A stretch of DNA of 64,000 nt from an uncultured Oscillospiraceae bacterium. Lineage in GTDB: Bacteria > Bacillota > Clostridia > Oscillospirales > Oscillospiraceae. The DNA lies in NCBI GenBank assembly GCA_947591105.1, contig CANQDL010000002.1, positions 4,919 through 68,918 of the forward strand. The letters run 5' to 3'. Of this stretch, positions 23,235 to 61,492 are shown in pieces (the stretch's first letter is position 1; each line of letters opens with the position of its first letter). Under the pieces are notes generated by a model. That model did not search any database, was not told the DNA's origin, and was given only the letters and a program-made list of their open reading frames with translations. A program made the translations under genes and the position numbers.

Positions 23235-23290
23235 AGATGAGTCATATTTCCCCGGCGGTGACAAGTTCAGGAAAAAGAGGTCTGTTTTAC

Positions 23291-34613: not shown

Positions 34614-34656
34614 CGCCCCTCCGGCAGAGAGAAGCCGGAGGGGCGGCTTGCGTTTC
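34614..34656 (+). terminator. Hairpin/terminator after the surface protein gene
   Basis: 12-bp stem CGCCCCTCCGGC/GCCGGAGGGGCG with only a weak T-tract (GCGTTTC). Confidence 0.5.
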
Positions 34657-34707
34657 GGAGGGGAAGGAAAAATGATAATCCAGGGAGACGACTTTTGCCG
34701 TTTCCGG

Positions 34708-34779
34708 TGGTATGATAGGCACAGTGAAATAAGAACAGCGCTCCGGCGGGCATCCATCAGGCCCGGCGGGGCGCTTTTT
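34708..34779 (+). promoter_or_regulatory. Candidate extended -10 promoter followed by an intrinsic terminator (possible attenuator) upstream of terS
   Basis: TGGTATGAT at 34708-34716. Hairpin 34738-34774 has 14-bp arms with one mismatch and one G-T pair, followed by TTTTT (34775-34779). Confidence 0.45.
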
Positions 34780-34794
34780 GTCGGGGGTGTGGGG

Positions 34795-35142
34795 TTGGAC
34801 AGAGCGGAAAAGTGGCTGCAGGAAGAGGGGCTGACCCTGCTGGAGGGGTGGGCCAGAGACGGCGCTACCCGGGAGGCGATCGCCCAGCAGATGGGCGTCA
34901 GCGCCAGTACGTTTTACAGGTGGATCAAGAGATACCCACAGCTCGCCCAGGCGCTGCGCAAGGGCAGAGAGGTGGTGGATTACCAGGTGGAGCAGGCCCT
35001 GCTGGACAGAGCCCTGGGGGGAGATCTGCGGGCGCAGATGTATTGGCTCAACAACCGCAGAGGAGATAAGTGGCAGGAGCATCCCAAGGAGAAAACGGAA
35101 AACGAGAGCGGCGAAGGGGTCACGGTGATCGTGGATGTGTGA
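34795..35142 (+). CDS. Terminase small subunit (HTH type)
   Basis: AEKWLQEEGLTLLEGWARDGATREAIAQQMGVSASTFYRWIKRYP...NRRGDKWQE matches my memory of HTH-type TerS proteins. The start is uncertain: TTG 34795, GTG 34789 or ATG 34672. Confidence 0.65.
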   Translation: MDRAEKWLQEEGLTLLEGWARDGATREAIAQQMGVSASTFYRWIKRYPQLAQALRKGREVVDYQVEQALLDRALGGDLRAQMYWLNNRRGDKWQEHPKEKTENESGEGVTVIVDV

Positions 35143-35212
35143 GGCGATATCGGGGCCCCCGCGCGAATCCAGAGAAGCGAATCGCGTGGGGAAAGAAGCG
35201 GCCGCGCCGTAT

Positions 35213-35242
35213 TCTCCCCTTGCCGCTTGCGGCAAGGGGAGA
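35213..35242. repeat. 30-bp palindrome covering the terL ribosome-binding site
   Basis: TCTCCCCTTGCCGC-TT-GCGGCAAGGGGAGA has 14-bp perfect arms. Its right arm contains the AAGGGGAG SD that lies 7 nt before the GTG at 35249. Confidence 0.8.
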
Positions 35243-35248
35243 GCTACG

Positions 35249-36478
35249 GTGCGGTTAAGCGACGTGTTGGGCCCGGCGTTTTATGATCTGGCGCGGGACG
35301 TGTTCCGGCACGGACATACCCACTATGATCTGGCGGGGGGACGGGGAAGTCTGAAGTCCTCCACGGTGAGTCTGCTGGCGCCGCTGCTGCTGGTGCAAAA
35401 TCCGGACGCCCACGCGCTGGTGCTGCGAAAGGTGGGCAACACCCTGCGGGACAGCGTGTTCGCCCAGTATATGTGGGCCGTGGATAAGCTGGGCATGGGC
35501 GCGCTGTGGCGGGCCCATGTGTCACCCATGGAGCTGGAATACCTGCCAACAGGACAGAAGATCCTCTTTCGGGGAGCGGACGATCCCATGAAGCTCAAAT
35601 CCGTCAAGGCGCCCTTCGGGTACATCGCCGTGACCCACTTTGAGGAAAAGGATCAGTTCGCCGGGCGGGAGGAGATACGCTCCATCCTCCAGTCCACCAT
35701 GCGGGGCGGGGAGCTGTTCTGGAATTTTGAGAGCTATAACCCGCCTGCGAGCAGGGACAACTGGGCCAACCAGGACTCCCTGGAGGATCGGCCGGACAGG
35801 CTCCGGCACAAGAGCTGCTACCTGGACGCGCCGCGGCAGTGGCTGGGGGAGGCGTTCTTCTCCCAGGCGGAGGCACTGAAGGCACGGGATGAGCGGGCAT
35901 ACAGGCACGAGTACCTGGGCCAGGTCACCGGTACAGGCGGAAACGTGTTTCAGCGGCTGGAGATCCGGCCCATCTCCCAGCAGGAGGCCGGGCGGATGGA
36001 GCGGATCTTCCAGGGGGTGGACTGGGGCTGGTACCCGGATAAGTTCGCATTCCTCCGCACCGGGTACGACCCGGCCCAGGAGCGGATCTATCTGCTGGAC
36101 GAATATTATGTTAACCAAAAGAGCAACCGGGAGACGGCCCAGTGGGTGCGGGAGAGGGGATATTTCGACTACCCCATCACCTGCGACAGCGCCGAGCCGA
36201 AGAGCATCGGCGACTGGCGGGACATGGGGCTGCCCGCCAGGGGCGCGGTGAAGGGCCCGGGGAGCGTGGATTACGGGTTCAAGTGGCTCCAGGGGCGGAC
36301 GCTGGTCATTGATCCGGCCAGGACGCCGGGGGCATACCGGGAGATCACGCGCTATGAATATGAGCGGGATCGGGCAGGGAACGTGATCAGCGGCTATCCG
36401 GACAGGGACGATCACGCCATATCGGCGCTGCGGTACGCTTACGAGGGACTTTTTAACCGGCGGGGCTCGGTGGGGTGA
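35249..36478 (+). CDS. Terminase large subunit (PBSX-type)
   Basis: Walker A-like GGRGSLKSS and the conserved ILFRGADDPMKLKS block. C-terminal nuclease region. GTG start after the SD. Confidence 0.9.
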   Translation: MRLSDVLGPAFYDLARDVFRHGHTHYDLAGGRGSLKSSTVSLLAPLLLVQNPDAHALVLRKVGNTLRDSVFAQYMWAVDKLGMGALWRAHVSPMELEYLPTGQKILFRGADDPMKLKSVKAPFGYIAVTHFEEKDQFAGREEIRSILQSTMRGGELFWNFESYNPPASRDNWANQDSLEDRPDRLRHKSCYLDAPRQWLGEAFFSQAEALKARDERAYRHEYLGQVTGTGGNVFQRLEIRPISQQEAGRMERIFQGVDWGWYPDKFAFLRTGYDPAQERIYLLDEYYVNQKSNRETAQWVRERGYFDYPITCDSAEPKSIGDWRDMGLPARGAVKGPGSVDYGFKWLQGRTLVIDPARTPGAYREITRYEYERDRAGNVISGYPDRDDHAISALRYAYEGLFNRRGSVG

Positions 36479-36529
36479 GCGCCGGACGGGTGAGAAGAAG
36501 AGGAACGGTTGGCCAGGGAAGGAGAAGAA

Positions 36530-37891
36530 ATGGGCATTTATCGGAGAAACGACAGGGCGGCGCTGGCCGCGAGGGCATATGAGCTGTTCGGCGTGCGGGC
36601 GGCGGACGGGGACGAGACGGCCCGGCTGCTGGCCCGGTGCGCGGCGGCTTACCGGGGGCGGCCGGAGTGGCTGGACGGCGATCCGGAGAGCCCGGTCAGA
36701 ACGGTGAATATGGCAAAGAGCATCTGCTCGGAGACGGCCAGGCTGACCACCCTGGCGGCCGGTATCTCCGTCGGCGGGTCGGCGCGGGGCAGCTGGCTGC
36801 AGCAGCAGATCGACCGGTGCTATTTCAGCCTCCGGCACTGGGTGGAGTACGCCTGCGCCTATGGCACGGTGATCCTGAAGCCCAACGGGAAGGACGTGGA
36901 GATGCTCACGCCGGAGCAGTTCATCATCACCGCCGAGGAGGGCGGCGAGGTGACCGGGGCGGTGTTTTTCAGCGGCCGGTATGACCAGAGCCGGGAGAAG
37001 TACTTCACCCGGCTGGAGTATCACCGGTTTTTGCCCGACGGGCGCTACGGGGTGTCCAACCGGTGCCTGGCGGCGGACGGGCCCGGGCAGACGGGCAAGC
37101 CCGTGCCCATCGGGTACACCCCCTGGGCGGGGCTGGCGGAGGATATGGCGGCGGAGGGCGTGCGCCGGCCGCTGTTCGGCGTGCTGCGGATGCCGGAGGC
37201 CAACCATCTGGACGCGAACTCCCCCATGGGGCTGCCGGTGTTTGCCGGGGCCATGGAGGAGCTGCGGGATCTGGACGTGGCGTACAGCCGCAACGCCGCG
37301 GAGATCTTTGACAGCCGGCGGCTGGCGCTGCTGGACGACCGGCTGACCGAACAGGCCGGCGCGCCGCTGAACGGCGCCAGGCGCATCCGGCTGCCCCGGT
37401 TCATCAAACGGGCTTTCGGTTCCGCCGCCACGGAGTATTACCAGGAGATCAACCCGGCGCTGAACACGGCCGAGCGGCTCAAGGGCATTGACGCGCTGCT
37501 GTCCCAGATCGGGTTCAAGTGCGGCTTCTCCAACGGGTATTTCGTGTTCAACCAGCGCTCCGGCATGGTCACCGCCACCCAGGTGGAGGCGGACGACCGG
37601 CGCACGGTGCAGCTGGTCAAGGACGTGCGGGACAAGCTGGAGACGGCCCTGGACGGGCTGATCTACGCCCTCGACCGGTTCGCGGACGCCTATGGGCTGG
37701 CGCCGGAGGGGGAGTATACGGTCACGTATGATTTCGGGGACGTGACCTATAACCGGGAGGAGGATCGGGCCAGGTGGTATGGGTATGTGAAGGACGGAAG
37801 AGCGCCGTTCTGGTACTACCTGACCAGGTTCGAGGGCTTTTCCAAGGAGCAGGCCAAGGCGCTGGAGGCCATAGGGGAAAAGAAGGCGTGA
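36530..37891 (+). CDS. Portal protein
   Basis: About 453 aa, directly after terL. By recollection it resembles A118/SPP1-type portal proteins. GGAAGGAGAAG RBS. Confidence 0.8.
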   Translation: MGIYRRNDRAALAARAYELFGVRAADGDETARLLARCAAAYRGRPEWLDGDPESPVRTVNMAKSICSETARLTTLAAGISVGGSARGSWLQQQIDRCYFSLRHWVEYACAYGTVILKPNGKDVEMLTPEQFIITAEEGGEVTGAVFFSGRYDQSREKYFTRLEYHRFLPDGRYGVSNRCLAADGPGQTGKPVPIGYTPWAGLAEDMAAEGVRRPLFGVLRMPEANHLDANSPMGLPVFAGAMEELRDLDVAYSRNAAEIFDSRRLALLDDRLTEQAGAPLNGARRIRLPRFIKRAFGSAATEYYQEINPALNTAERLKGIDALLSQIGFKCGFSNGYFVFNQRSGMVTATQVEADDRRTVQLVKDVRDKLETALDGLIYALDRFADAYGLAPEGEYTVTYDFGDVTYNREEDRARWYGYVKDGRAPFWYYLTRFEGFSKEQAKALEAIGEKKA

Positions 37892-38039
37892 ACAGGGGAC
37901 GGCGGCAATAGGCCGGACTTTTTCATATTGGTATCTCGCCCGCCGCGCCGGGCGTTAAGAAAGGCGCGGAGCCGTCGGGGGGCCGCGACCTCCGTGAAAG
38001 CCAGCGGGCAGACAGCGTGACGGCGGGAAGGACACAGAC

Positions 38040-38294
38040 GTGAAGCGGGAATTTCTGGAGAGCCTGGATATCGGCGGCGGGGCCAGACTGCCTAAGGCCG
38101 CGGTGGAGGCCATTATGGCCGAGCACGGCCGGTCGGTGCAGGCGGCGCAGCAGGCCGGACGGGTGCGGTTCACGGCCCGGATGGCCGATGGCGGAGAGCC
38201 GGTGACGAGAGAGCAGATCATGGCGATCCCTGACCGGGCCAGGCGGCGGAAGGCCATCGCAAACCATCTTGAACTATTTGAAAAGGAGAACTGA
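38040..38294 (+). CDS. Short scaffold-like protein (GP20-like N-terminus, possibly truncated)
   Basis: 84 aa with a GTG start. The position before the capsid gene and LPKAAVEAIMAEHGRSV resemble the N-termini of phage scaffold proteins, which are usually about twice as long. Confidence 0.45.
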   Translation: MKREFLESLDIGGGARLPKAAVEAIMAEHGRSVQAAQQAGRVRFTARMADGGEPVTREQIMAIPDRARRRKAIANHLELFEKEN

Positions 38295-38296
38295 AA

Positions 38297-39154
38297 ATGG
38301 CAGAGGAAAACATCATCCAGGAGAGCAATCTGGCCCGGGTGCGGGAGATCGAGTTCGTGAGCGCTTTTGCCGGTTCCATCGGCAAGCTGATGCAAGCCAT
38401 CGGCGTGACGCGCAAGGTGCCCAAGCAGGCGGGAACCGTGCTGAAGGCCTATAAGGCAAAGGGCACGCTGGCCAGCGGCGCGGTGGAAGAGGGCGAGACC
38501 ATCCCCCTGAGCCAGTACCAGACCGAGGCGGTGGACTGCGGGGAGATCACCCTGAAGAAGTGGCGCAAGGCCGCCACCGCCGAGGCCATCATCGACCGGG
38601 GCTATGACCAGGCGGTGGATATGGTCACGGACGAGATGCTCCGGGACGTGCAGAAGACCGTCCGCAAGGACTTCTTCGACTTTCTGGACACCGGCACCGG
38701 CACCGCCTCGGGCGAGAGCTTCCAGCAGGCGGTGGCCCAGGCCTGGGGCCAGCTGCAGGTGCTGTTCGACGACGACGGGGTGGCCTGCGTGTACTTTATG
38801 AATCCGCTGGACGTGGCGGATTATCTGGCCAGCGCCCCCATCACCATGCAGAGCGCCTTCGGGCTGAGCTATGTGGAGAACTTTATGGGCCTGGGCACCG
38901 TGATCCTCAACGGCAGCGTGCCCAAGGGCACGGTGTACGCCACTGCCAAGGACAACCTGGTGCTCTATTACATCCCCGTCAACGGGGCGGATCTGAACGA
39001 GGCCTTTGACTTCACCAGCGACGACACCGGCTACATCGGCATCCATGAGCAGGCCGACTATACCAACATGACCGCCGCCGACACGGTGGTGTGCGGTATG
39101 CGGATGCTGGCGGAGAAGCTGGACGGCATCGTCAAGGCCACCATCGGCGCGTGA
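38297..39154 (+). CDS. Major capsid protein
   Basis: 285 aa at the position after the scaffold. By recollection its composition is typical of A118-like major head proteins. Confidence 0.7.
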   Translation: MAEENIIQESNLARVREIEFVSAFAGSIGKLMQAIGVTRKVPKQAGTVLKAYKAKGTLASGAVEEGETIPLSQYQTEAVDCGEITLKKWRKAATAEAIIDRGYDQAVDMVTDEMLRDVQKTVRKDFFDFLDTGTGTASGESFQQAVAQAWGQLQVLFDDDGVACVYFMNPLDVADYLASAPITMQSAFGLSYVENFMGLGTVILNGSVPKGTVYATAKDNLVLYYIPVNGADLNEAFDFTSDDTGYIGIHEQADYTNMTAADTVVCGMRMLAEKLDGIVKATIGA

Positions 39155-39600
39155 TGGAGTGGGCGGAATACGCCGCGCTCTACCCGGACGGGCCGGATCA
39201 GGGCGGCTTTGAACGCCTGGGATGGGAGGCACGCCGGATCATGGAGCAGGCCGTCACCGGCGTGGACGGTGTGCAGAAGCTGGCGGCGGCCCCGCCCACG
39301 GCGCCGGAGGCCGCGCTTGCTGTGGAGCGGTGCCAGGCGGCGCTGATACATCAGCTGTGGCAGGCGGAGCAGGCGGCCGGATGCGCCCGGCGCGCGGACG
39401 GCCTTGTGACGGGTCGGGTGGTGACGGCCGTCACCGCCGGAAACGAGAGCGTGAGCTACGCCGCGCCGGCGGGGGCGGCGTCCTGGCAGGAGAGCCAGGA
39501 AATGCTGCAGCGGACGGTGGAGCGGTATCTGGCGGGAGTGCCGGACGCCAACGGGGTCAATCTGCTGTATATGGGCGCATATCCGGTGAAGATGGGGTGA
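39154..39600 (+). CDS. Head-tail connector/adaptor candidate
   Basis: 148 aa. Its ATG overlaps the capsid stop. The call is positional only. Confidence 0.45.
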   Translation: MEWAEYAALYPDGPDQGGFERLGWEARRIMEQAVTGVDGVQKLAAAPPTAPEAALAVERCQAALIHQLWQAEQAAGCARRADGLVTGRVVTAVTAGNESVSYAAPAGAASWQESQEMLQRTVERYLAGVPDANGVNLLYMGAYPVKMG

Positions 39601-39631
39601 CGATCCCCCACCCGTTGTCGGAGCACGATGG

Positions 39632-39849
39632 AAAAGCCTCCCCTGTGCAAGGGGAGGTGGGCTGCCGTAAGGCGGCTCGGAGGGGTTGTTACAATCCCCC
39701 AGTCACCGCCTGCGGCGGCGACAGCCCCCTTTACACAAGGGGGCCAAAGAGGTGGGGATCTCAAAGCCCCCTTTACACAAGGGGGCCAAAGAGGTGAGGA
39801 CCTCAAAACCCCCTTGGCACAAGGGGCCAAAGAGGTGAGGTGATTTTTT
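39632..39849 (+). repeat. Mosaic multi-hairpin repeat family A, copy 2, ending in three tandem 42-bp units
   Basis: Same hairpin order as copy 1. GCCCCCTTTACACAAGGGGGCCAAAGAGGTGRGGAYCTCAAA units start at 39724, 39766 and 39808. The last unit supplies AAAGAGGTGAGG just before the next ORF start. Confidence 0.8.
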
Positions 39850-40294
39850 GGTGTATGAGGATGTGGTGACGCTGTTCAACCGGAAGGTGACGGACGCGGG
39901 GGTGCTCTGGTACCCCACGGTGATCGAAGGGGTGCATGTGGCCCCTGAGAGCGTCGCGGCGGAGGCCGGGTACGGCCGGGCCCGGGATGACCGGGCGGCG
40001 GTGCTGATCCCCTACGTATGGGCGGGAGGCGCGCCCTGCGTGGGGGGAAAGACATACGTGCCGCCGAAGCTGTGGCAAAAGGTAGAGGAGCCGGCCGCGT
40101 ACGTGACCTTTGCCGGGGGAGAGGATTTCGACTTCTTCATCACGGAGGACTGGCTGGGGACAGAGCCGGTGGAGGACGGCGCCTGGCCCGGCGGCTTCTA
40201 CGGCTATTTGGCGGGCCAGCGGGACAACGTGTTCGCCGTCACCGCCGTGAGCCGGTATAAGGCGCTGCCCCACTTTGAAGTGACGGGGAGGTGA
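39848..40294 (+). CDS. Phage head-tail joining / minor capsid family protein
   Basis: 148 aa with a TTG/GTG start at 39848/39851. The position matches the three small head-completion genes of A118-like modules. Confidence 0.5.
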   Translation: MVYEDVVTLFNRKVTDAGVLWYPTVIEGVHVAPESVAAEAGYGRARDDRAAVLIPYVWAGGAPCVGGKTYVPPKLWQKVEEPAAYVTFAGGEDFDFFITEDWLGTEPVEDGAWPGGFYGYLAGQRDNVFAVTAVSRYKALPHFEVTGR

Positions 40295-40298
40295 TCCG

Positions 40299-40766
40299 GT
40301 GGCGGGGATACGATTCAAGGATCTCTTTCTGGAGACGGACACGCTGCGGGCGCGGCTGTCCATGGCCCGGCCGTCGAGACGGGCGGAGCGGGCCTTCCGG
40401 GCGCTGCACAGGCGGGTCGGAGAGGATATGCTGCCCTATATGCCCAGCAGGACCGGCGGGTTCCGGCAGAGAACGCAGGCGGCCAACAGGGCCCTGATCG
40501 GCTCCGGCCAGGTGCTGGCGGGAGTGGGGCCTATGGGCCGGTATCTGTACCAAAACCGGGTCATGGTGGATGCGGCTACGGGCCGTGGGCCGCAAATGAT
40601 CCCCGGAGTGGGGCCGCGCTTTGAAAAGGGCGCGGATCTGACGGCCACGGATCGGCAGCTGCGGTATTCCTACGCCGGGACGAGGCCGTTCTGGTTTGCC
40701 TACGCCAAGCAGCGAAGGATGGACAGCTGGACGGAAGAGGTACAGCGGATATTGGACGGTAAGTGA
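40299..40766 (+). CDS. Phage minor capsid / head-tail joining protein
   Basis: 155 aa. The MLPYMPSRTGGFRQRT region resembles the minor-capsid-2 type (from memory). Confidence 0.5.
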   Translation: MAGIRFKDLFLETDTLRARLSMARPSRRAERAFRALHRRVGEDMLPYMPSRTGGFRQRTQAANRALIGSGQVLAGVGPMGRYLYQNRVMVDAATGRGPQMIPGVGPRFEKGADLTATDRQLRYSYAGTRPFWFAYAKQRRMDSWTEEVQRILDGK

Positions 40767-41272
40767 TGGAAGAAAGACGAGACGAACCGAAATATGACCC
40801 GGAGGGCTATGAGGTGCTCACCCAGGCCATCCTGGCGCTGCTGGCACAGTTTCCGGGGCTGGAAGAGGGCGAGCGCGTCTCTTTTGCCACACTGCGGGCG
40901 GAGGGCGGTCTGGCTATGTTCCCCGGCGACGGGGCCGTGGTGGACGAGGAGAAGCGCAGCGTCACGGGCCGGGTGCGGCAGGTGTGCCGGTATCCCTTTG
41001 TGGCCCTCTGCCGGACGGCCGGCATGACGGAGCAGAGCCGGGCGGATGCCAAGGAGCGGCTGGATCGCCTGGGGCGCTGGCTGGGCCGGCAGCCCATAAC
41101 GGCGGGCGGCGCGGTCGTTCAGCTGCGGGACTATCCCGCCCTCACGGGCCAGCGGCGGCTGCTGGACTTCTCGGTGCAGGCGGCCGCCTATCTTTATGAG
41201 AGGGACGAGCACCAGACAGAGACATGGGCGGTGGGACTGACCGCCCGGTATGAAAACATCTTTTATCTTTGA
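40763..41272 (+). CDS. Phage minor capsid / tail-completion protein
   Basis: 169 aa. ATGA overlap with the previous gene. Positional call. Confidence 0.45.
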   Translation: MMEERRDEPKYDPEGYEVLTQAILALLAQFPGLEEGERVSFATLRAEGGLAMFPGDGAVVDEEKRSVTGRVRQVCRYPFVALCRTAGMTEQSRADAKERLDRLGRWLGRQPITAGGAVVQLRDYPALTGQRRLLDFSVQAAAYLYERDEHQTETWAVGLTARYENIFYL

Positions 41273-41289
41273 TTTTGGAGGTAGACACA

Positions 41290-41805
41290 ATGGCAAAACT
41301 GGAACGCGAGGCCCTGGGCCACTATCTGGACACCAAGTTCAACACCAAGGTGAGCCAGGCCGCGGAGGCGGAGTTTGAGATCATCGGCGACGACATCGAG
41401 GAGATGAGCGTGGAGCTCAACGCCGACACCGAGCAGGTCAAAAATATCCTGGGTCAGACCAAGACCAGGGACAACGGCTACTCCCCCAGCATGGACGCCG
41501 ATCCCTTCTACGCCGACCCGGACAAGAAGCTCTATCCCAAGCTGCGGGATATCGCCATGAACCGGCTCAAGGGCGACAAGTGCAAGAGCCTGATGCTGGA
41601 GGTGCTGGTGGAGGATACCGCCGCCGAGACCCATAAGGCCTGGCTGCGGGAGGTCACCGTCAAGCCCCAGAGCTACGGCGGCGGCACCGAGGGCGTGAAC
41701 ATCCCCTTCAACGTCAGCGAGGACGGCAAGAGCGTGGAGGGCACCGTCACCGCCGAGAGCATGAAGGCGGGCGCGCCCGTGTTTACCGCTGGCGCGGCGG
41801 AGTGA
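41290..41805 (+). CDS. Major tail protein
   Basis: 171 aa with a strong GGAGG RBS. It lies before the chaperone pair and the tape measure gene, and a hairpin follows it. Confidence 0.6.
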   Translation: MAKLEREALGHYLDTKFNTKVSQAAEAEFEIIGDDIEEMSVELNADTEQVKNILGQTKTRDNGYSPSMDADPFYADPDKKLYPKLRDIAMNRLKGDKCKSLMLEVLVEDTAAETHKAWLREVTVKPQSYGGGTEGVNIPFNVSEDGKSVEGTVTAESMKAGAPVFTAGAAE

Positions 41806-41889
41806 GATGCGGCGGGGAGGGAGGCTTGTCCCTCCCCCAGTCCCCTCATAATGATGGGAGGGGCAATGTGAAGGAAGGGAGATTTTCCG

Positions 41890-42336
41890 ATGGCCGATGT
41901 GATGAAATTACAGCTGGATACCGGCGCCGTTACCGTGGAGATGGAGGACGAGTCCGGCAGGGCGCTGGGCAGCTTTTCCTTTCAGCCCGCCGACTCCAAT
42001 CTCCTCAAGCGATACGGCGCGGTGGTGGAGCACTTCAACGCCATAAAGCTGGAGCAGACGGAGGATGAACAGCGCCAGGCGGAGCAGATGAACCGCCTGT
42101 GCGACGATATCGGGCAGCAGTTTGACTACCTGCTGGGGGGAGACGTGGCGAAGGAGATCTTTGCCAAGTGCGGGCCCCTGACAGTGACGAAAAACGGCGA
42201 TTTCTTTTTTGAACAGGTGCTGGAGGGCGTGGGCGCGCTGGTGGAGAAGATCACCAAAAAGCGCCTGGACAAAAAGCTGGCCAGGATCAGAAAGACCGTG
42301 GCCAACGCCCCGTCTGTCAAAAACGGCAGGCCGTGA
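41890..42336 (+). CDS. Tail assembly chaperone candidate
   Basis: 148 aa and acidic, immediately upstream of the Gp15-like and tape measure genes. Confidence 0.5.
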   Translation: MADVMKLQLDTGAVTVEMEDESGRALGSFSFQPADSNLLKRYGAVVEHFNAIKLEQTEDEQRQAEQMNRLCDDIGQQFDYLLGGDVAKEIFAKCGPLTVTKNGDFFFEQVLEGVGALVEKITKKRLDKKLARIRKTVANAPSVKNGRP

Positions 42337-42917
42337 GCGGGGCGGAGGGGCGGATGGACGCCTGGTCGCTGCCCACGGCGCTGACGGTGGGAGGCAGGCA
42401 GCACCCCATCCGGACGGATTTCCGGGATGTGCTGTATCTGCTGGATGTGTTCGCCGACCCGGAGCTGGAACAGGACGAGAAGGGCGCGGTGTGCCTGCAG
42501 GTGCTCTACAGGGACTGGAGGGCCATTCCGGCGGAGCACCGGCGGCAGGCGCTGGACGAGGCGGCGCGGTTCATTGACGGCGGCATGGAGAGCGAAAGCG
42601 GCCGGCCCCGGCCCAGGACGGTGGACTGGAGGCAGGACGGGCCCTTGATCCTGCCGGCGGTGAACAGAGTGCTGGGCGGCGAGGTGCGGGCCATGGAATA
42701 TCTGCACTGGTGGACGTTTCTGGGCGCTTACATGGAGATCGGGGACAGTCTGTTCACCACGGTGCTGGGCATCCGGCAAAAACGCGCCAAGGGCAAGAAG
42801 CTGGAGAAGTTCGAACAGGAGTTTTTGAAGGAGAATCGGGCGCTGGTGCAGCTGCGTCCCAGGCAGAGCCGGGAGGAACAGGCCCGGCGGGACGCGCTGA
42901 AGGCGCTTTTTGTGTGA
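42333..42917 (+). CDS. Gp15-like phage protein (second chaperone-position gene)
   Basis: LPTALTVGGRQHPIRTDFRDVLYLLDVFADPEL resembles the bacteriophage Gp15 family N-terminus. GTGA overlap in the -1 frame relative to the previous ORF. Confidence 0.6.
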   Translation: MSGAEGRMDAWSLPTALTVGGRQHPIRTDFRDVLYLLDVFADPELEQDEKGAVCLQVLYRDWRAIPAEHRRQALDEAARFIDGGMESESGRPRPRTVDWRQDGPLILPAVNRVLGGEVRAMEYLHWWTFLGAYMEIGDSLFTTVLGIRQKRAKGKKLEKFEQEFLKENRALVQLRPRQSREEQARRDALKALFV

Positions 42918-42930
42918 GGGGTGAGCGGCT

Positions 42931-45486: not shown

Positions 45487-45498
45487 GGGGGTGACGCA

Positions 45499-45888
45499 GT
45501 GGCGCAGCGATACCAGGACTATATCAAGCTCAACGACAAGGTGATCGTCCAGCCGGACGAGGGGTTACAGTATTCCTTTGAGACGACCTATACGGAGGAC
45601 TCCACCCGTGTGCAGAGCGGGCGCATCTACGCCACGCCCATGTTTACGGTGGAGTCCTTCGGGTATACGGCCACGTGGGTGCCGGCGGCGGAGATGACCA
45701 AGATCCTGCAGATCATCGACAAGGGCCATCCGTTCAAGCTGCACTACTTCTCTCCCCACTACGGGGCATGGCGGGACGATATGTTTTACGTGGGCAAGGG
45801 CTCTCTGGCCATCGGCCGGCTGAACACGGCGGAAGAGGTGTTTGAGAACCTGTCCTTCAATATGGTGGGGGTGAATCCGATCACATGA
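45499..45888 (+). CDS. Small distal-tail-position protein
   Basis: 129 aa with a GTG start and a GAGGGGG RBS. Positional call only. Confidence 0.45.
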   Translation: MAQRYQDYIKLNDKVIVQPDEGLQYSFETTYTEDSTRVQSGRIYATPMFTVESFGYTATWVPAAEMTKILQIIDKGHPFKLHYFSPHYGAWRDDMFYVGKGSLAIGRLNTAEEVFENLSFNMVGVNPIT

Positions 45889-48086
45889 TACCGGTCAGCG
45901 GGCAGTTTATAAAGACGATGGAGCAGCGGCGGGATTTCAAAGCTCTGGCCGACGTGACGCTGGCGGACGGCCGGCAGCTGACGCTCACGGAGGAGGACTT
46001 CGTGATAAGCGGCAACCAGCTGACGGACGGGGCGGGCGTGTCCGCGCTCCCCCTGGGAGAGGCGGTGTGCCGGACGGCGCGGCTGGAGCTGATGAACAGC
46101 GACGGGCATCTGGACGGATATGATTTTTACGGCGCGGCGATCCGGCTGTGGCTGACCTTCCGGCTGGAGCAGGATGAGGAACGGATCGAGCTTGGCACAT
46201 TCACCGTGACGGAGCCGGAGACGGTGGGACAGACGGTGAGCGTGACGGCGGCGGACGCCATGGTGCGCGCGGACTGCGCCTATGCGCCGAAGCTGGCGGG
46301 AAACGCGTCCCTGGGCGGGCTGTGGCGGGATGTGTGCGGCGCGTGCGGCATCCCCACCCGGGAGACGGATTTTCCCAACAGGGAGATGGAGGTGGCCGTG
46401 CCGGCGGCGGGTGCGTATACCTGCCGGCAGATGCTGGGGTACATCGCCATGCTGGCCGGGGGAAACGCCCGGATCGGCCGGGACGGGTACGCCCAGGTGC
46501 TGGCCTATGACCGGCTTTGCGCGCCGGCGTACATCCTGGACGCCTGGTCGAGTCTGAACGCGGACACGGACAGCGTGACCGTGACGGGACTGCGGACAGC
46601 GGCGGGAGAGCAGGAGCTTCTGGAGGGGGAAGAGGGCTATGTGCTGCAGGTGGAAAATCCCCTTATGGAGGGACGGCAGGCCCAGGCGCTGGAGAAGATG
46701 GGGGCCGTGCTGATCGGATTGCAGGTGCGGCGCTTTGACGGAACCCACGTGAGCTATCCCATGGCGGAGTGCATGGACACGGTGGGGATCAGAGACAGGC
46801 GGGGCCGGGAATACAAGACCGTGCTGACGGACGTGACCTTCACCTTCGGCGGGGCCACGGCCCTTTCCAACAGCGCGGAGGACGCGGTGCGAAACGCCAG
46901 CCGGTATACGTCCCAGGCGGGACAGGTCAGGACGGAGGCGATGAAGGGCCTGGAGCAGGAGAAGGCGGAGCGGGAGCAGGCCGTGGCGGCCGAGCAGCAG
47001 GCCCGGGGAGAGCTGGCCCAGCAGATGCAGCAGCGGCTGGAAAAGGCAGGGGGCCTTTACAGCACCGCCCAGCGGCAGCCGGACGGCTCTACGGTCTACT
47101 TCCTGCACGACAAGCCCACCCTGGACGGCTCCGGGGTGGTGATGAAGCTGACGGCGGACGTGATCGGCTTCTCCACAGACGGGGGAAAGAGCTACCCGTA
47201 CGGGTTCACGGTCACCGGGGAGATGGTGATGAACGTGCTCCAGACCCAGGGGATCAGCGCGGACTGGATCCGGGCGGGCAGCATCGACCTGGGGGTGCTC
47301 AAGCTGACCGGGACGGTCTGCGGGCTCATCCAGGGCCATGGCTCTATACCGGACGGGAGCACCACCGACGGCATCGTCATATACGGAAACGGAACGGACG
47401 GGGCGGGGAAACCCCGGCCGCCCTATATCATCGTGACGAACGAGGGCGTGCGGCTGCAGATCACGGACACGGAGCACGTCTATTTCTCCGGCGGCTACGC
47501 CGGATTTATGGGGGAGAGCATCTCCACCACCGGTAATATAAACGCGGACGGCAGCATCAACGCCGTGGCCGGGGATATTTACGCGGGAAACCGGCGGGCG
47601 GTGCACTTTGACAGCGGCACAGGACTGATCACCTACGGATCGGACAGCACGGACGCGTTTCTGTCCGGGAAAAACGTATACGTGGGGGAGGACATAGCAA
47701 GTCATGTCACCTACCTGCGGGGCGGCTCGATCCATGCCTCGAAGGGCATCCAATACGACTCCGACCGGCGGCTGAAAAAGGACATAGAGCCCCTGCCGGA
47801 GGTCTATGCGCGGGTGCTGGACGGGATGACGCCGGTGCGGTTCCGGTATGAGAGTGAGCCGGAGGGCGGGGCCTATCACATGGGCTACATCGCCCAGGAC
47901 GCGGCGGAGGCGCTGGCCGGGGCGGGTCTGGCGCCGGAGGATATGGCGGCGGTGGGCGTCCGGACGGACGGGGACGGGCATATGTCCCTGGCCTACGGGG
48001 AGCTTGTCGCCCTGCTGCATTTGAAGATCCGGTGTCTGGAGCGGCGATTGGACGCGCTCCAGGCCGAGAGGAGGGACGGAATATGA
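45885..48086 (+). CDS. Tail-associated protein/fibre with a C-terminal S74 intramolecular chaperone domain
   Basis: The C-terminus DSDRRLKKDIEPL...YHMGYIAQD...LAYGELVALLHLKIRCLERRLDAL matches the endosialidase-type auto-cleaving chaperone domain. Confidence 0.8.
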   Translation: MIPVSGQFIKTMEQRRDFKALADVTLADGRQLTLTEEDFVISGNQLTDGAGVSALPLGEAVCRTARLELMNSDGHLDGYDFYGAAIRLWLTFRLEQDEERIELGTFTVTEPETVGQTVSVTAADAMVRADCAYAPKLAGNASLGGLWRDVCGACGIPTRETDFPNREMEVAVPAAGAYTCRQMLGYIAMLAGGNARIGRDGYAQVLAYDRLCAPAYILDAWSSLNADTDSVTVTGLRTAAGEQELLEGEEGYVLQVENPLMEGRQAQALEKMGAVLIGLQVRRFDGTHVSYPMAECMDTVGIRDRRGREYKTVLTDVTFTFGGATALSNSAEDAVRNASRYTSQAGQVRTEAMKGLEQEKAEREQAVAAEQQARGELAQQMQQRLEKAGGLYSTAQRQPDGSTVYFLHDKPTLDGSGVVMKLTADVIGFSTDGGKSYPYGFTVTGEMVMNVLQTQGISADWIRAGSIDLGVLKLTGTVCGLIQGHGSIPDGSTTDGIVIYGNGTDGAGKPRPPYIIVTNEGVRLQITDTEHVYFSGGYAGFMGESISTTGNINADGSINAVAGDIYAGNRRAVHFDSGTGLITYGSDSTDAFLSGKNVYVGEDIASHVTYLRGGSIHASKGIQYDSDRRLKKDIEPLPEVYARVLDGMTPVRFRYESEPEGGAYHMGYIAQDAAEALAGAGLAPEDMAAVGVRTDGDGHMSLAYGELVALLHLKIRCLERRLDALQAERRDGI

Positions 48087-49702
48087 CGCTGACACAGGAG
48101 ATCACCCTGGACATCTATGAGGAGAAGTATTTCGAGTACATCAACGCCAAGCAGGCGGACAACATAAGCCGTATCCTGGTGGTGACGCTGACGGCGAACG
48201 GCCAGGTCATCAAGCCGGACGCGGAAGGCGAGCAGGCGGTGTTCCGGGCGCTGAAGCCGGACGGCACCAGCGTGATCGACCCGGCGGTCATCGGCCAGGA
48301 CGGGAAGGTGACGGTGGCGCTCACGGCCCAGGCGCTGGCCTGCGCGGGACAGGTGGAGGCGGACGTGTCCATCCTGCGGGACGAGATGATCCTCTCCTCG
48401 GCCACGTTCTATATCCAGGTGGCGGCGGCGCCCCTGGGCAGATCCATCACCAGCGAGAACGAGTTTCTGCTGCTGACGCAGGCGCGGCAAGCGGCGGAGG
48501 CGGCCGCCCAGGCCGCGGCCGAGGGCGCGGAGCAGATAAAGGAAAGTCTGGAGAGCGTGCGGCGCAGCGAGCTTCAGGCGCAGCAGTACGCCGCCGAGGC
48601 CCAGACCGGCGCGGAGACGGCCTCGGAGCAGGCGGGAGCGGCGTCTGACAGCGCGGAGGCGGCCCGGCAGGCGGGCGAGGACGCCGAAGAGCAGACCCGG
48701 CAGGCGGCGGAGCACGCCGGAGCGTCCCGGGAGAGCGCCGAGAGCGCGGCGGCGGATGCGGCGCGGGCGGAAGAGGCGGCGGAAACGGCCCAGAGCATCG
48801 CCCAGGGGGCCCTGGGCTATTACGCCGACCCGGAGACCCTCGCGCAGATCCATCCCCAGGCCGACGACGGCAACTGGGCCATCGTGGGCACCACGGACAC
48901 CATATGGATCTGGGACAGCGACAGCGGCGCCTGGACGGACAGCGGCAACAAGACGGATCTGTCCCAATACTACACAAAGACCGAGGCGGACGAGATCCTG
49001 ACCGGGGCGGAGGAGCGGTTGGACGCCGCTCTCACGGCAAAGCTTCTGCTGTTGGCACACCCGGTGGGGAGCCTGTACTGGTCGATGGAGGCCACCGATC
49101 CGGCAGAGCTCTTCGGCGGGACGTGGGAGCGGATCAAGGATCGCTTTGTCCTGGCGGCGGGCGATACATATAAAGCGGGTACGTCCGGCGGGGCGGCGTC
49201 GGTGACCACCGGCGGCTCCAGCGCCTCCAGTACTGCAGGCAGCAGCGCTGCCAGCACAGGAACATCGAGCCTGCAATACACGTACGACAGCAACACGGGA
49301 TATACCGGATCTACCGCGCTCACCGTGGAGAATCTGCCGTATCACACCCACGGGTCGAGAAGCCTGGTCGGTTCCGGACGTCTGCGCTCCATTGGCGTGC
49401 AAAGCGGCGATACGTTCATGAGCGCCAGCGGGATCATCAAAACGTCTGTGGAGAGCTGGGCTGGCAGTCACGCGGGGCTGCAGGACGAGCAGGGCGTCTC
49501 GCAGGATCAGGCGTTTACCATCGACGCGACCCACGAGCACGACGGCGTTGGAGCGGGCTGGGGGCACAGCCACACGATGAGCCATGCCCACTATATGGAT
49601 CACACCCACAGCATCGCCCATACCCACACCATGGCCCACACCCACACCGTGGCCACCATGCCGCCGTACACCGTGGCCTACTGCTGGAAGCGGACGGCGT
49701 GA
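48083..49702 (+). CDS. BppU-like baseplate/receptor-binding protein with a coiled coil and an HxH-repeat tip
   Basis: The N-terminus INAKQADNISRILVVTLTANGQVIKP is BppU_N-like. It has an Ala/Glu-rich coiled coil, and a C-terminal HEH..HSH..HAH..HTH..HTH..HTH array. Confidence 0.7.
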   Translation: MTLTQEITLDIYEEKYFEYINAKQADNISRILVVTLTANGQVIKPDAEGEQAVFRALKPDGTSVIDPAVIGQDGKVTVALTAQALACAGQVEADVSILRDEMILSSATFYIQVAAAPLGRSITSENEFLLLTQARQAAEAAAQAAAEGAEQIKESLESVRRSELQAQQYAAEAQTGAETASEQAGAASDSAEAARQAGEDAEEQTRQAAEHAGASRESAESAAADAARAEEAAETAQSIAQGALGYYADPETLAQIHPQADDGNWAIVGTTDTIWIWDSDSGAWTDSGNKTDLSQYYTKTEADEILTGAEERLDAALTAKLLLLAHPVGSLYWSMEATDPAELFGGTWERIKDRFVLAAGDTYKAGTSGGAASVTTGGSSASSTAGSSAASTGTSSLQYTYDSNTGYTGSTALTVENLPYHTHGSRSLVGSGRLRSIGVQSGDTFMSASGIIKTSVESWAGSHAGLQDEQGVSQDQAFTIDATHEHDGVGAGWGHSHTMSHAHYMDHTHSIAHTHTMAHTHTVATMPPYTVAYCWKRTA

Positions 49703-49716
49703 AAGGGGGCAACGCC

Positions 49717-49923
49717 ATGGACAGAGGATGCGTGGGGTGCCGGTTCGCGGCGCCGGTGTACATGGGAGACGGGGAGGAGCTCTTGACGGCCTGCGTCTAT
49801 CTGCTGCGGACGGGACACAGGCGTCCCTGCCCGCCCGGGGACGGGTGCCGGGTGTTCGAGCCGGCGTGCGGGGAAAAACAGAACGCTTGTACAGCGGTAC
49901 GGAAAGGGGAAGGATACATATGA
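49717..49923 (+). CDS. Small Cys-rich hypothetical protein
   Basis: 68 aa with 8 Cys (CVGC...C...CPPGDGC...C...C). AAAGGGGG RBS. Its stop overlaps the holin start. Confidence 0.4.
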   Translation: MDRGCVGCRFAAPVYMGDGEELLTACVYLLRTGHRRPCPPGDGCRVFEPACGEKQNACTAVRKGEGYI

Positions 49924-50351
49924 GATTAAAGAACGTGTTTTGCACGGCGGTGGGCGCCATAGGCGGGGCGGTCAGCGCTTTGCTGGGAGGATGGGACGCG
50001 GCGGCGGTCACGCTGCTGATCTTCATGGCGGCGGATTACCTGTCGGGCCTGGTGGTGGCGGGAGTGTTTCACGCCTCTCCCAAGTCCGCCGGCGGCGCGC
50101 TGGAGAGCCGGGCCGGGTTCAAGGGCCTGTGCCGCAAGGGCATGATCGTGCTGTTTGTGCTCATCGCATGCCGGCTGGATCTGCTGCTGGGAACGGGCTA
50201 TATCCGGGACGGGGTCATCATCGGCTTTTGCGCCAACGAGCTGCTGTCCATCGTGGAAAATGCCGGGCTCATGGGCCTGCCCCTGCCCGGAGCGGTGACG
50301 GGGGCGGTGGACGTGCTGATGGGGAAGACGGAGGAAAACGGCCATGAGTAA
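49920..50351 (+). CDS. Phage holin (LL-H/phi-LC3-like family)
   Basis: Three TM helices. DYLSGLVVAG...FCANELLSIVENAGLMGLPLP is typical of this holin family. Confidence 0.85.
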   Translation: MRLKNVFCTAVGAIGGAVSALLGGWDAAAVTLLIFMAADYLSGLVVAGVFHASPKSAGGALESRAGFKGLCRKGMIVLFVLIACRLDLLLGTGYIRDGVIIGFCANELLSIVENAGLMGLPLPGAVTGAVDVLMGKTEENGHE

Positions 50352-51159
50352 CGCCGCGCAGGTGGTGACCATCGCCCTGGCGGAGGTGGGCTATAAGGAG
50401 AAGGCCACCAACGCCAGCCTGGATCTGGCCACGGCCAACGCCGGGACGGGAAACTGGACGAAATACGCCCGGGATCTTTGGAACGCCGGCTATTATAATG
50501 GGAACAAGAACGGCTACGCCTGGTGCGACGTGTTTGTGGACTGGGTGTTCTTCAAGGCTTTCGGGAAGACCGAGGGGCAGCTGACAGAGTGCCAGACCGG
50601 CACCCTGGGGGCGGCCTGCCCGTACAGCGCCGGGTACTACAAGGCACAGGGCCGGTACGACAAGACCCCCAAGGTGGGCGACCAGGTGTTCTTCCAGCAG
50701 GGCGGCGCGCTGGTGCACACCGGCATCGTGGTGGGCGTCAGCGGCAGCACCATCACCTGTGTGGAGGGCAACGCCTCCAACATGGTGAAGAAGACCAGCT
50801 ATAGCCTCGCCAACACCTACGTGGCCGGGTTCGGTCATCCCAAGTATACGGAAGAGACCGATGACAGCGCCGGCGTGATCGAGGTCACGGCGAACACCGG
50901 CGCGCAGATCACCGTCACGCTGGGCACTGTCCAGTCCGGCAGCACCGGCGCCCAGGTCAAGACGGTGCAGCGCATTCTCTACGCCCGTGGCATCCGGGAC
51001 AACGCCGGGAAGGTCATCGCCGTGGACGGTTCCTTTGGGCCCAGCACCAAGCAGGCGGTGATCAAGCTGCAGAAGAGCCTGTTCCCGTCCGCGTCCAAAG
51101 AGTGGGACGGCGTCGTCGGCGCCAAGACCTGGGACGCCATGCTGAATAAGCTGTGGTAA
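50344..51159 (+). CDS. Endolysin: CHAP amidase/peptidase plus a PG_binding_1 domain
   Basis: Catalytic Cys context YAWCDVFV and His context LVHTGIVV. C-terminal GAQVKTVQRILYARG...DGSFGPSTKQAVIKLQ peptidoglycan-binding repeat. Confidence 0.9.
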   Translation: MSNAAQVVTIALAEVGYKEKATNASLDLATANAGTGNWTKYARDLWNAGYYNGNKNGYAWCDVFVDWVFFKAFGKTEGQLTECQTGTLGAACPYSAGYYKAQGRYDKTPKVGDQVFFQQGGALVHTGIVVGVSGSTITCVEGNASNMVKKTSYSLANTYVAGFGHPKYTEETDDSAGVIEVTANTGAQITVTLGTVQSGSTGAQVKTVQRILYARGIRDNAGKVIAVDGSFGPSTKQAVIKLQKSLFPSASKEWDGVVGAKTWDAMLNKLW

Positions 51160-51161
51160 TA

Positions 51162-51199
51162 AGAACACCCTGCCGCGATGGCGGCAGGGTGTTCTTTGT
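51162..51199. terminator. Strong terminator closing the phage cluster (shared with the convergent ydcF-like gene)
   Basis: 15-bp stem AGAACACCCTGCCGC/GCGGCAGGGTGTTCT followed by TTGTGG. Confidence 0.75.
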
Positions 51200-53882: not shown

Positions 53883-54026
53883 CCTCTCCTGTGCAAGGGG
53901 AGACCTGGCTGCGCGTGCTCCGACGACGCCAGGGTTGTTACCAGTCCTGGAGAATATCTTGGCTTGGTAACAATCCCCCAGTCACGGCTGCGCCGTGACA
54001 GCCCCCTTTGCACAAGGGGCCATAAG
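53883..54026 (+). repeat. Mosaic multi-hairpin repeat family A, copy 3
   Basis: CCTCTCCTGTGCAAGGGGAG, GGGTTGTTACC..GGTAACAATCCCCCAGTC, GTCACGGC-TGC-GCCGTGAC, CAGCCCCCTTTGCACAAGGGGCCATAAG. Confidence 0.7.
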
Positions 54027-61416: not shown

Positions 61417-61492
61417 GCTAGTGTAGCTCAGTCGGTAGAGCAGCTGATTCGTAATCAGCAGGTCGTCAGTTCGAGTCTGACCACTAGCTCCA
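61417..61492 (+). tRNA. tRNA-Thr (anticodon CGT), CCA encoded
   Basis: Hand-folded cloverleaf: acceptor GCTAGTG/CACTAGC, D arm GCTC..GAGC, anticodon arm GCTGA-TTCGTAA-TCAGC, T arm GTCAG-TTCGAGT-CTGAC, then T-CCA. 76 nt. Confidence 0.93.

Follow-up and report, generated by a model that had tools for sequence, protein, structure and literature searches.

The 64-kb stretch of Oscillospiraceae DNA analyzed here, called the window below, carries among ordinary host genes a cluster of phage late genes which, judged by its gene content and its conservation in at least six related rabbit-gut species, is probably a domesticated phage kept by its host rather than debris. The cluster occupies positions 34667-51196 (16.5 kb) and comprises 19 genes on the plus strand, tightly packed with small gaps or overlaps of 4-8 nucleotides (nt), which lead from the small terminase subunit TerS to an endolysin (Table 1). 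Gene families were called with Pfam, PHROGs and NCBIfam profiles. The calls bear out the initial annotation of the locus, which had listed about 20 co-directional open reading frames (ORFs) in this order; the count of 19 includes an ORF for a Cys-rich protein of 68 residues that had been overlooked. The earlier designation of the large terminase subunit TerL as PBSX-type also holds, its NCBIfam match lying above the cut-off, for a family that is broad and common to many true phages. TerL probably starts at position 35249: the 409-residue protein read from this start is identical to the database protein P0001, and an ORF of 447 residues was set aside after an exact look-up gave no match, the 409-residue protein being the actual form. 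A defective Walker A motif (GGRGSLKS) was suspected in TerL and dismissed, as this motif is the norm of the family, true phages included. No tail sheath family was detected among the cluster proteins with Pfam or PHROGs.

Table 1. Features of the late-gene cluster and its surroundings (window positions, unless a locus is named)
Feature	Position	Strand	Evidence
Prolyl-tRNA synthetase gene (ProRS; context, outside the element)	23237-24721	+	Pfam tRNA-synt_2b, HGTP_anticodon, ProRS-C_1
Terminator hairpin of the upstream surface-protein gene; left border of unrelated DNA	34614-34645	.	12-bp stem, 11 GC pairs; -33.8 kcal/mol, z = -3.6
Conserved non-coding leader, about 125 nt	34667-34794	+	alignments; nhmmer
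Intrinsic-terminator hairpin in leader	34737-34775, T-run 34776-34780	+	alignment, covariation
Small terminase TerS, 115 residues, N-terminal helix-turn-helix (HTH)	34795-35142	+	phrog_309 E 1.6e-37; HTH_23 E 4.5e-9
Large terminase TerL	35249-36478	+	Terminase_3 and 3C; NCBIfam 'PBSX family' TIGR01547, 110 bits vs. cut-off 105
Portal protein	36530-37891	+	phrog_533 E 8e-82
Short scaffold, 84 residues	38040-38294	+	alignment with longer scaffolds of relatives
Major capsid protein	38297-39154	+	phrog_544 E 6e-52; Phage_capsid_4
Head-tail adaptor	39154-39600	+	phrog_541, weak; position kept in relatives
Three tandem 42-nt hairpin units resembling repetitive extragenic palindromes (REP-like), between two operon genes	39723-39847	.	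repeat search and folding
Gene in head-completion/neck position, no named function	39848-40294	+	phrog_3366 E 2e-14
Minor capsid/neck protein	40299-40766	+	Minor_capsid_2 below cut-off; phrog_556
Tail completion protein	40763-41272	+	phrog_3266 E 1.5e-13
Putative major tail protein (by position)	41290-41805	+	phrog_3099 E 1e-41
Two genes in tail-chaperone position	41890-42336 and 42333-42917 (Gp15-like)	+	phrog_11299, phrog_706; Phage_Gp15 E 4e-18
Tape measure protein, 851 residues	42931-45486	+	phrog_1535, phrog_58 and others
Dit-position protein	45499-45888	+	phrog_1194; DUF6711 weak
Tal-like tail protein, C-terminal Peptidase_S74 chaperone domain	45885-48086	+	phrog_6616 E 6e-103; PF13884
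Receptor-binding/baseplate protein	48083-49702	+	BppU_N and Gp10_C
Cys-rich 68-residue ORF directly before holin	49717-49923	+	conservation in relatives
Holin	49914-50351	+	Phage_holin_4_1 E 5e-32; TIGR01593
Endolysin	50344-51159	+	CHAP and PG_binding_1
Operon-closing terminator hairpin, shared with the convergent DUF218 gene	51161-51196	.	16-bp perfect stem, -33 kcal/mol, z = -6.1
Xer-like recombinase (relatives)	L017 18776-19612; L141 10001-10831; L140 10001-10840	same as cluster	best matches below cut-offs

Screening of the sizeable ORFs elsewhere in the window for integrase, recombinase, CI/Cro, antirepressor and replication families returned none, which agrees with what had been noted from the ORF list, and the remaining sizeable ORFs match ordinary host families (FeoAB, MtnA-like, ribosomal L10 and L7/L12, ProRS, MatE, BlaI/BlaR1, LRR/fn3 surface proteins, DUF218, ABC-F, a penicillin-binding protein, FtsW/RodA and RadC) or nothing. 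The hairpins described earlier at the two borders are real, a search for direct repeats likewise found none at the borders, and neither the window nor the related locus L017 yielded att-like repeats. The GC content of the cluster (0.64-0.67) lies within that of its flanks (0.58-0.67), and the GC content of third codon positions is likewise host-like, as had been estimated by eye. That the cluster should belong to a complete and active prophage, with an early region beyond the window or overlooked in it, is hardly credible. The gene order is indeed that of complete temperate phages such as Blautia phage Montmirail, but ordinary host genes extend over 34 kb upstream and 13 kb downstream, in several species host genes abut both ends, and the integrase, CI/Cro switch and replication genes that stand contiguous with the late genes in a complete temperate prophage are missing here; the host-gene flanks refute this reading for the window, and only a mis-assembly could rescue it.

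Relatives of the cluster were gathered by looking up TerL homologs and by scanning one genome per GTDB species with an alignment of the protein in the tail-tube position. About 30 related loci were obtained, nearly all in metagenome-assembled genomes (MAGs) of rabbit-gut ('Lapin') Oscillospiraceae, and a tblastn synteny map divides them into two kinds of element, complete prophages and clusters of late genes only, called structural-only clusters below. Five other species-representative MAGs have the same cluster of late genes just downstream of ProRS, with leader and left boundary as in the window, at loci L011, L015, L017, L018 (on one contig with L005) and L022 (on one contig with L007). These five share the order HAAS-domain gene on the minus strand, ProRS, 0.1-1.7 kb of variable DNA, and then the genes from TerS to holin and endolysin; the window differs in that ProRS and the cluster are separated by an insertion of about 10 kb of other host genes. 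A near-identical cluster is carried by four more samples that belong to the species of the window, and the two of them that reach the left junction (L001 and L004) show the same junction. The cluster is thus not strain-specific, being present in five other species and in four samples of its own. Host genes follow directly after the endolysin in L011, L015 and L022, where the autonomy-gene families were likewise not found. On the right, DUF218 and ABC-F genes are encountered in the window and L022, a minus-strand gene of 525-538 residues (with rotamase domains in L138) in a neighbourhood of an extracytoplasmic function (ECF) sigma factor in L011 and the extra locus L138, and a FolD/FolC neighbourhood in L015. 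The initial annotation had asked for the same locus in relatives between the surface-protein gene and the ydcF-like gene: ProRS is kept as the left-hand anchor in the five other species, whereas the surface-protein/ydcF-like (DUF218) pair is not a conserved anchor. The gene upstream of the cluster encodes a surface protein in the window and is ProRS or an unrelated gene in relatives, not a regulator of the Xre/Xpf type.

Within the cluster, the putative major tail protein is among the best-conserved proteins of the whole phage group, with 77-90% identity in most related loci and 68-69% in the most distant ones (L025 and L026), and the capsid protein is 85-91% identical in L011, L015, L018 and L022 and 78% in L017. 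The receptor-binding module is the most variable part between species, relatives having other genes there, e.g., DUF859. The Cys-rich protein of 68 residues (CxxC ... CPPGxGC) is encoded between the receptor-binding gene and the holin in every structural-only cluster examined and shows 62-76% identity in L018, L134, L136, L138 and L140, with no family match in Pfam, PHROGs or NCBIfam.

Several observations concern the immediate flanks of these loci. The gap between ProRS and the leader is an apparent hotspot for inserted surface-protein, BlaI/BlaR1, RHS and BNR genes; an LRR_5 gene also lies between ProRS and the cluster in L022. Genes of 151-152 residues, 61% identical to each other, occupy this gap in L015 (3431-3886) and L017 (3680-4138); they have no family match, and the window is without such a gene. 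About 4 kb downstream of the endolysin, L134 (14826-15302) and L138 (14842-15312) carry an ECF sigma factor with an adjacent gene of 415-418 residues; as this sigma factor is not conserved in the window, it was not taken as the regulator.

Conserved DNA in front of TerS likewise characterizes these clusters. The initial annotation had placed the start of the cluster at an ATG at 34672, which falls inside an invariant motif of the non-coding leader; this frame stops after three codons in relatives, and the start of TerS is therefore 34795, which agrees with the gene called in relatives. The leader consists of an invariant AAAATGATAA box, the sequence GAGrCGAyTTT, a -10-like box TATGAT (TATAAT or TATACT in relatives), a terminator hairpin and a T-run. 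Homology among seven clusters begins at the same point, about 10 nt before AAAATGATAA, and the upstream DNA is unrelated in each of them; a shared start nucleotide in spite of unrelated upstream DNA indicates one ancestral event. The hairpin is conserved as a structure: 6 of its 12 pairs are changed on both sides, none of 500 shuffles matches this covariation, slid controls collapse, and in L011 the stem sequence is entirely different. An antiterminator pairing of CCGGUGG with the 3' arm was considered and dropped, because the compensatory change that would match it is missing in L011. Between the end of the hairpin and the TerS start lie about 20 nt, too few for a promoter, and the leader is the only entry to the 19-gene unit. 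The leader holds no sigma-70 consensus promoter, the -35 element being absent. A search with nhmmer matches each structural-only cluster exactly once (E 1e-27 to 1e-36) and gives no match in the complete-phage relatives; by this measure the combination of leader and terminator is specific to the structural-only lineage. It has no family match in Rfam, and scanning IMG/VR for the leader motif gave nothing beyond one AT-rich chance match.

The complete relatives show what the structural-only lineage has lost. Prophage L031 (GCA_947587025.1), which resides in the same MAG as structural-only cluster L022, has an early region with a CI-like repressor (HTH and S24 domains), a Cro-like gene, about 18 small early genes and a replication initiator (phrog_3584), and its late region includes in addition a gene of 118 residues, Phage_min_cap2 minor head proteins and a scaffold of 218 residues. 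Immediately upstream of terS, six complete-prophage loci (L031 at 8917-9318, L019, L023, L027, L030 and L025) carry a gene of 133 residues; three orthologues scanned against the RinA family TIGR01636 gave E-values of 7.7e-6 to 4e-3, below the cut-off, the best match being nearly full length. Behind this gene come a conserved hairpin and a TGATAT...GTATCA inverted repeat, and together they probably represent the late-gene activator and its site; the position upstream of terS is where the Ltr activators of Gram-positive pac phages act (PMC3753634). The structural-only clusters have none of these three genes, i.e., neither the RinA-like gene nor those of the minor head protein and the 118-residue protein. 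L031 and L020 share 77% identity with the window in TerL and 81% in the capsid protein, and the closest cultured relative, the complete 46-kb temperate Blautia phage Montmirail (ON453898), has a TerL that is 57% identical. For TerS, TerL and portal (neighbour-joining trees for the latter two) the complete phages fall outside the structural-only clusters. The initial annotation would have taken close homologs solely inside complete integrase-bearing prophages as evidence against its reading; for these three proteins, the nearest relatives are other structural-only clusters.

Besides these losses, two proteins of the lineage are changed. Compared with the TerS of complete phages, that of the structural-only clusters has a 39-residue in-frame internal deletion between two helices and keeps the HTH; identity is 77-83% among structural-only clusters and 31-35% to the phage TerS of about 150 residues. 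The HTH helices are visible in a predicted structure model (single-sequence, pLDDT 71), for which the best match among known structures, the phage protein 2AO9, is non-significant. Scans of IMG/VR and of a metagenome collection with the TerS alignment yielded distant matches only (at most 56% identity over short stretches) and no new loci. Similarly, the scaffold of 81-84 residues in the window, L018 and L015 is an in-frame internal-deletion form of scaffolds of 148-218 residues, keeping about 30 N-terminal and about 45 C-terminal residues when aligned with those of L011 (178 residues), L032 (148 residues) and L031 (218 residues); the homologs of L011 and L032 give weak Phage_scaffold matches. 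A pseudogenised N-terminal scaffold remnant was sought in the 148-nt gap after the portal gene and none was found. As far as these alignments go, the TerS deletion could alter packaging specificity, the shortened scaffold is at most a hint of a small DNA cargo, and both together would, speculatively, be compatible with a changed capsid size or packaging specificity.

The missing activator gives rise to a first alternative, unlikely but not negligible in our view, namely that the cluster is a phage-responsive module which stays silent until a related temperate phage, resident or infecting, supplies a late activator or an antiterminator. It might then act against that phage, by premature lysis with holin and lysin, by a terminase of other specificity or by a short scaffold that misdirects capsids, or else ride on the replication and induction of the phage. 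Indeed, the RinA-like gene of 133 residues is conserved upstream of terS in the complete relatives at the Ltr-type position (PMC3753634), the structural-only clusters are without it yet keep a promoter-like leader, the AAAATGATAA box of this leader resembles AAAATGATATAA, which L031 has in the same position, one MAG contains both a structural-only cluster and a complete relative, and the variants of TerS and scaffold recall interference devices. On the other hand, the complete phages have upstream of terS no sequence detectably homologous to the entire leader, Ltr activators act with high specificity on repeats of their own (PMC3753634), a terminator before TerS is foreign to the known Ltr scheme, and any interaction with such a phage is conjectural.

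Whether the cluster is still under selection was analyzed at two levels of divergence. Within the species (synonymous divergence, dS, of 0.03-0.08), 61 codons differ over the stretch from TerS through the adaptor, 11 of these changes being non-synonymous, and the ratio of non-synonymous to synonymous divergence (dN/dS) is 0.026 for TerL, 0 for capsid and scaffold, 0.14 for portal and 0.19 for TerS. Between species, dN/dS amounts to 0.14-0.18 for TerS, 0.16-0.28 for TerL, 0.12-0.34 for the capsid and 0.22-0.29 for the tail tube, as compared with 0.11-0.20 for ProRS; values are higher for the tape measure and tail-tip proteins, but these align poorly. The purifying selection anticipated in the initial annotation is therefore seen for TerS, TerL and capsid at both levels (0-0.19 within and 0.12-0.34 between species), and frameshift decay, which would have spoken for relaxed selection, is not encountered in relatives: each of the other five ProRS-linked clusters has the window genes in full length. 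The dS of the cluster (0.3-1.2) is of the order of that of ProRS (0.36-0.56), which is compatible with co-divergence. In a substitution-only neutral simulation, a divergence of 5% produced about 25 premature stops, and all 19 ORFs remained open in none of 300 runs; real clusters differ from one another by no less than 14-17% even where their genes are best conserved (nucleotide identity of 83-86% or below). No tracts of more than 90% identity shared with complete phages were found, so that recent gene conversion is not what keeps the ORFs open.

These data bear directly on a second alternative, according to which the cluster is an inert cryptic prophage remnant without a function of its own, either late-gene debris that has not yet decayed or a segment kept open by occasional recombination with phages. 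Late-gene remnants are common, tail-gene trees show a mosaic, a REP-like repeat has entered the operon at an intergenic gap, one relative (L032/L140) is without lysis genes at the end of its cluster, and there are internal deletions in scaffold and TerS. Against this stand 19 ORFs that are intact in six species where neutral drift would give dozens of stops, dN/dS of TerL, TerS and capsid near the ProRS value, the fact that both deletions are in frame and conserved across species, the absence of recent recombination tracts with phages, and a leader conserved with compensatory changes. We therefore regard an inert remnant as quite unlikely.

In one sub-lineage the end of the cluster differs. 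A Xer-like tyrosine recombinase of 276-279 residues follows directly after the cluster, on the same strand, in three relatives (Table 1); its homologs form a smooth identity series across related bacteria, and the gene after it, encoding a large secreted protein, is common to L017 and L140, which fits a conserved host flank. The window has no homolog of the recombinase, and five of the six ProRS-linked clusters are without it. In L032/L140 (GCA_947625045.1) the cluster ends (L140 7923-10001) with a tail fibre and the Cys-rich 68-residue gene, then the recombinase, and no holin or endolysin stands before the latter; the lysis genes may have been lost or relocated. This locus has no ProRS neighbour within 10 kb upstream, and it lies near the same YabP/DivIC neighbourhood as seen upstream in L007. 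We read the recombinase as conserved flank from these comparisons; it could also be a relic of the element's integrase in that sub-lineage. Taken further, the latter view makes the cluster an immobilised integrative element whose mobile ancestor consisted of leader, late genes and a small tyrosine recombinase that the window copy has lost. This appears improbable to us: the recombinase does follow the last cluster gene in L017, L141 and L140, and L032/L140 is away from ProRS, but the protein is Xer-like by size and by best matches that are all below cut-offs, its identity series is that expected of a host gene, the next gene too is shared by L017 and L140 as in a host flank, att-like repeats were not found, most ProRS-linked clusters including that of the window are without it, and L032 is still near the YabP/DivIC neighbourhood seen upstream in L007.

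Taken together, a maintained, conditionally expressed particle-and-lysis module is, on balance, the explanation that we favour for the comparative data. In this explanation the cluster would be the late half of a temperate siphovirus, with its packaging, head, neck, tail, receptor-binding and lysis genes, of which the lysogeny switch, the replication genes and the late activator were presumably lost in an ancestor of the rabbit-gut Oscillospiraceae clade; afterwards it would have been inherited with the chromosome beside ProRS and kept functional by selection. The default state of the operon would be OFF, and firing would need initiation or read-through by means of a factor encoded outside the cluster, which could be a regulator of the host or a related phage's RinA-like late activator. 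TerS and TerL would then load DNA through the portal into capsids built on the shortened scaffold, tails would be attached, and holin and CHAP endolysin would lyse the producer cell. Since the cluster neither excises nor replicates, the packaged DNA would have to be chromosomal. With the HTH of TerS kept and the leader conserved as DNA, a packaging start in or near the leader or terS is favoured, headfuls proceeding downstream, and by analogy with lateral transduction we think packaging from such a site more likely than fully random packaging. Rapid change in the receptor-binding module suggests that attachment to cells is still required of the particles, and binding could deliver DNA or kill.

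Several points weigh against this reading. No cognate activator or regulator gene was identified in or adjacent to the cluster, the right flank differs between species, and TerS retains the HTH DNA-binding domain. One sub-lineage carries the recombinase, and L032/L140 has no holin or endolysin before it. Vertical descent does not account for everything: in the TerL and portal trees, L017 and L032 branch as a separate sub-clade, the ProRS tree places L017 beside L018 but the cluster trees place it beside L032, and for capsid, tail tube, Gp15 and Dit the trees show a mosaic with co-circulating phages, which together with the replaced receptor-binding region indicates long-term exchange in the tail module. 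Purifying selection is common on defective prophages and alone is no proof of particle production. All hosts are moreover uncultured rabbit-gut MAGs.

Comparison with known systems places the cluster near two of them. Like PBSX, the defective prophage ('phibacin') of Bacillus subtilis, it is chromosomal, non-replicating and conserved in its host clade, keeps terminase, head, tail and lysis genes, and would be expected to package host DNA, being unable to replicate itself; its TerL belongs to the same broad family TIGR01547, with no specific homology beyond general phage families. PBSX, however, has a contractile tail of the myovirus type and carries its own regulators xre and xpf, whereas the cluster has a siphovirus set (tape measure, Dit, Tal and BppU-type protein) and no adjacent regulator, with a leader-terminator before TerS instead. 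The likeness to PBSX proposed in the initial annotation thus fails on tail type and adjacent regulators, the broad terminase family being all that is shared. With gene transfer agents (GTAs) such as RcGTA and FpGTA it has in common a domesticated late-gene cluster without integrase and replication genes, vertical inheritance, purifying selection and a release that would depend on lysis. The likeness is one of genes, GTAs being defined by small capsids and random packaging; autonomy has been lost and the cluster is maintained vertically, with mosaic tail trees, but its TerS keeps the HTH, whereas the TerS of RcGTA and of FpGTA are without a DNA-binding domain (PMC12946183). FpGTA, whose occurrence in Faecalibacterium demonstrates such an element in a related gut family, is podovirus-like and organized in operons of 10.5 and 5.5 kb (PMC12946183); the cluster is a single siphovirus-type operon of 16.5 kb whose organization is not homologous to it. 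The view of the initial annotation that this is a host-maintained GTA/PBSX-like module accordingly stands as to conserved locus, intact genes and purifying selection, and does not as to the HTH-bearing TerS and the tail type and regulators of PBSX.

Complete siphoviruses (L031 and Montmirail) have the same late gene order and homologous proteins. They differ by their switch or integration genes (a CI/Cro pair in L031; integrase, excisionase and a transcriptional regulator in Montmirail), by replication genes in both, by a minor head protein and a scaffold of 212-218 residues, and by the absence of the leader-terminator; the prophages of the L031 group have in addition the RinA-like activator upstream of terS and a TerS of about 150 residues. 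In lateral transduction, prophages of the Staphylococcus aureus 80alpha type package in situ (PMC7667829, PMC12946183), and a pac-type terminase acting on a non-excised element would similarly package the right arm and then the downstream host genes in successive headfuls; that process needs in-situ replication and a complete phage, and the cluster has no replication genes. A phage satellite of the phage-inducible chromosomal island (PICI) or capsid-forming PICI type does not fit a full tail and lysis set without integrase or primase/replication genes, nor does an F-type tailocin fit the presence and conservation of TerS, TerL, portal, scaffold and capsid genes.

The initial annotation knew of no characterized GTA in high-GC gut Clostridia. 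This has to be amended: measurements in gut Ruminococcaceae and Oscillospiraceae (Onthomonas) have revealed a packaging of host DNA that is GTA-like, the Oscillospiraceae case being without an assigned cluster, and FpGTA is so far the only responsible cluster in gut Oscillospirales (PMC12946183). It is tentatively possible that the cluster described here is of the kind still missing for Oscillospiraceae packaging. It would then be an independently evolved siphovirus-type analogue of GTAs and PBSX, with a late operon gated by the leader-terminator and dependent on a trans-acting antiterminator or activator, and with a TerS and a scaffold whose deletions have altered packaging specificity and capsid size such that host DNA, and not the 16.5-kb cluster, fills the particles. 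It constitutes in any case a well-delimited GTA candidate of a different, siphovirus-type morphotype, conserved across Oscillospiraceae species. Its complete phage relatives reveal the losses (lysogeny switch, replication genes, RinA-like activator, minor head protein) and the changes (TerS, scaffold, new leader-terminator) that accompanied domestication, which opens the study of how a bacterium silences a lethal phage operon and when this operon fires. Conserved defective prophages under purifying selection are already a known phenomenon, and the uncultured state of the hosts sets a limit to such work.

Finally, the window contains repeats and surface-protein genes apart from the cluster itself. 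The initial annotation had noted a host intergenic repeat inside the operon: three units are indeed present, and related hairpins lie in host intergenic DNA of the window (18049-18079 and 54003-54019), but the same 42-nt-type hairpin is present in related complete phages too and is not strictly of the host, so that the repeat alone gives no date for the residence of the cluster. The family resembles REP elements or miniature inverted-repeat transposable elements, with the consensus CCCCyTTnCACAAGGGG plus CCAAAGAGGTG, and recurs at L018 8312, L019 2139 and 10551, L023, L030, L021, L136 20358 and L140 14641; it fills intergenic gaps of the host chromosome, of structural-only clusters and of complete prophages, and occupies the same gap between the adaptor and the next gene in the window and L018. 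A tRNA-Thr (CGT) gene at 61417-61492, 10 kb downstream of the cluster, shows no sign of use as an attachment site. Two large surface proteins (12314-14623 and 31956-34598) share an LRR_5, fn3 and GH85_C architecture, and the second of them has internal C-terminal repeats (34212-34544).

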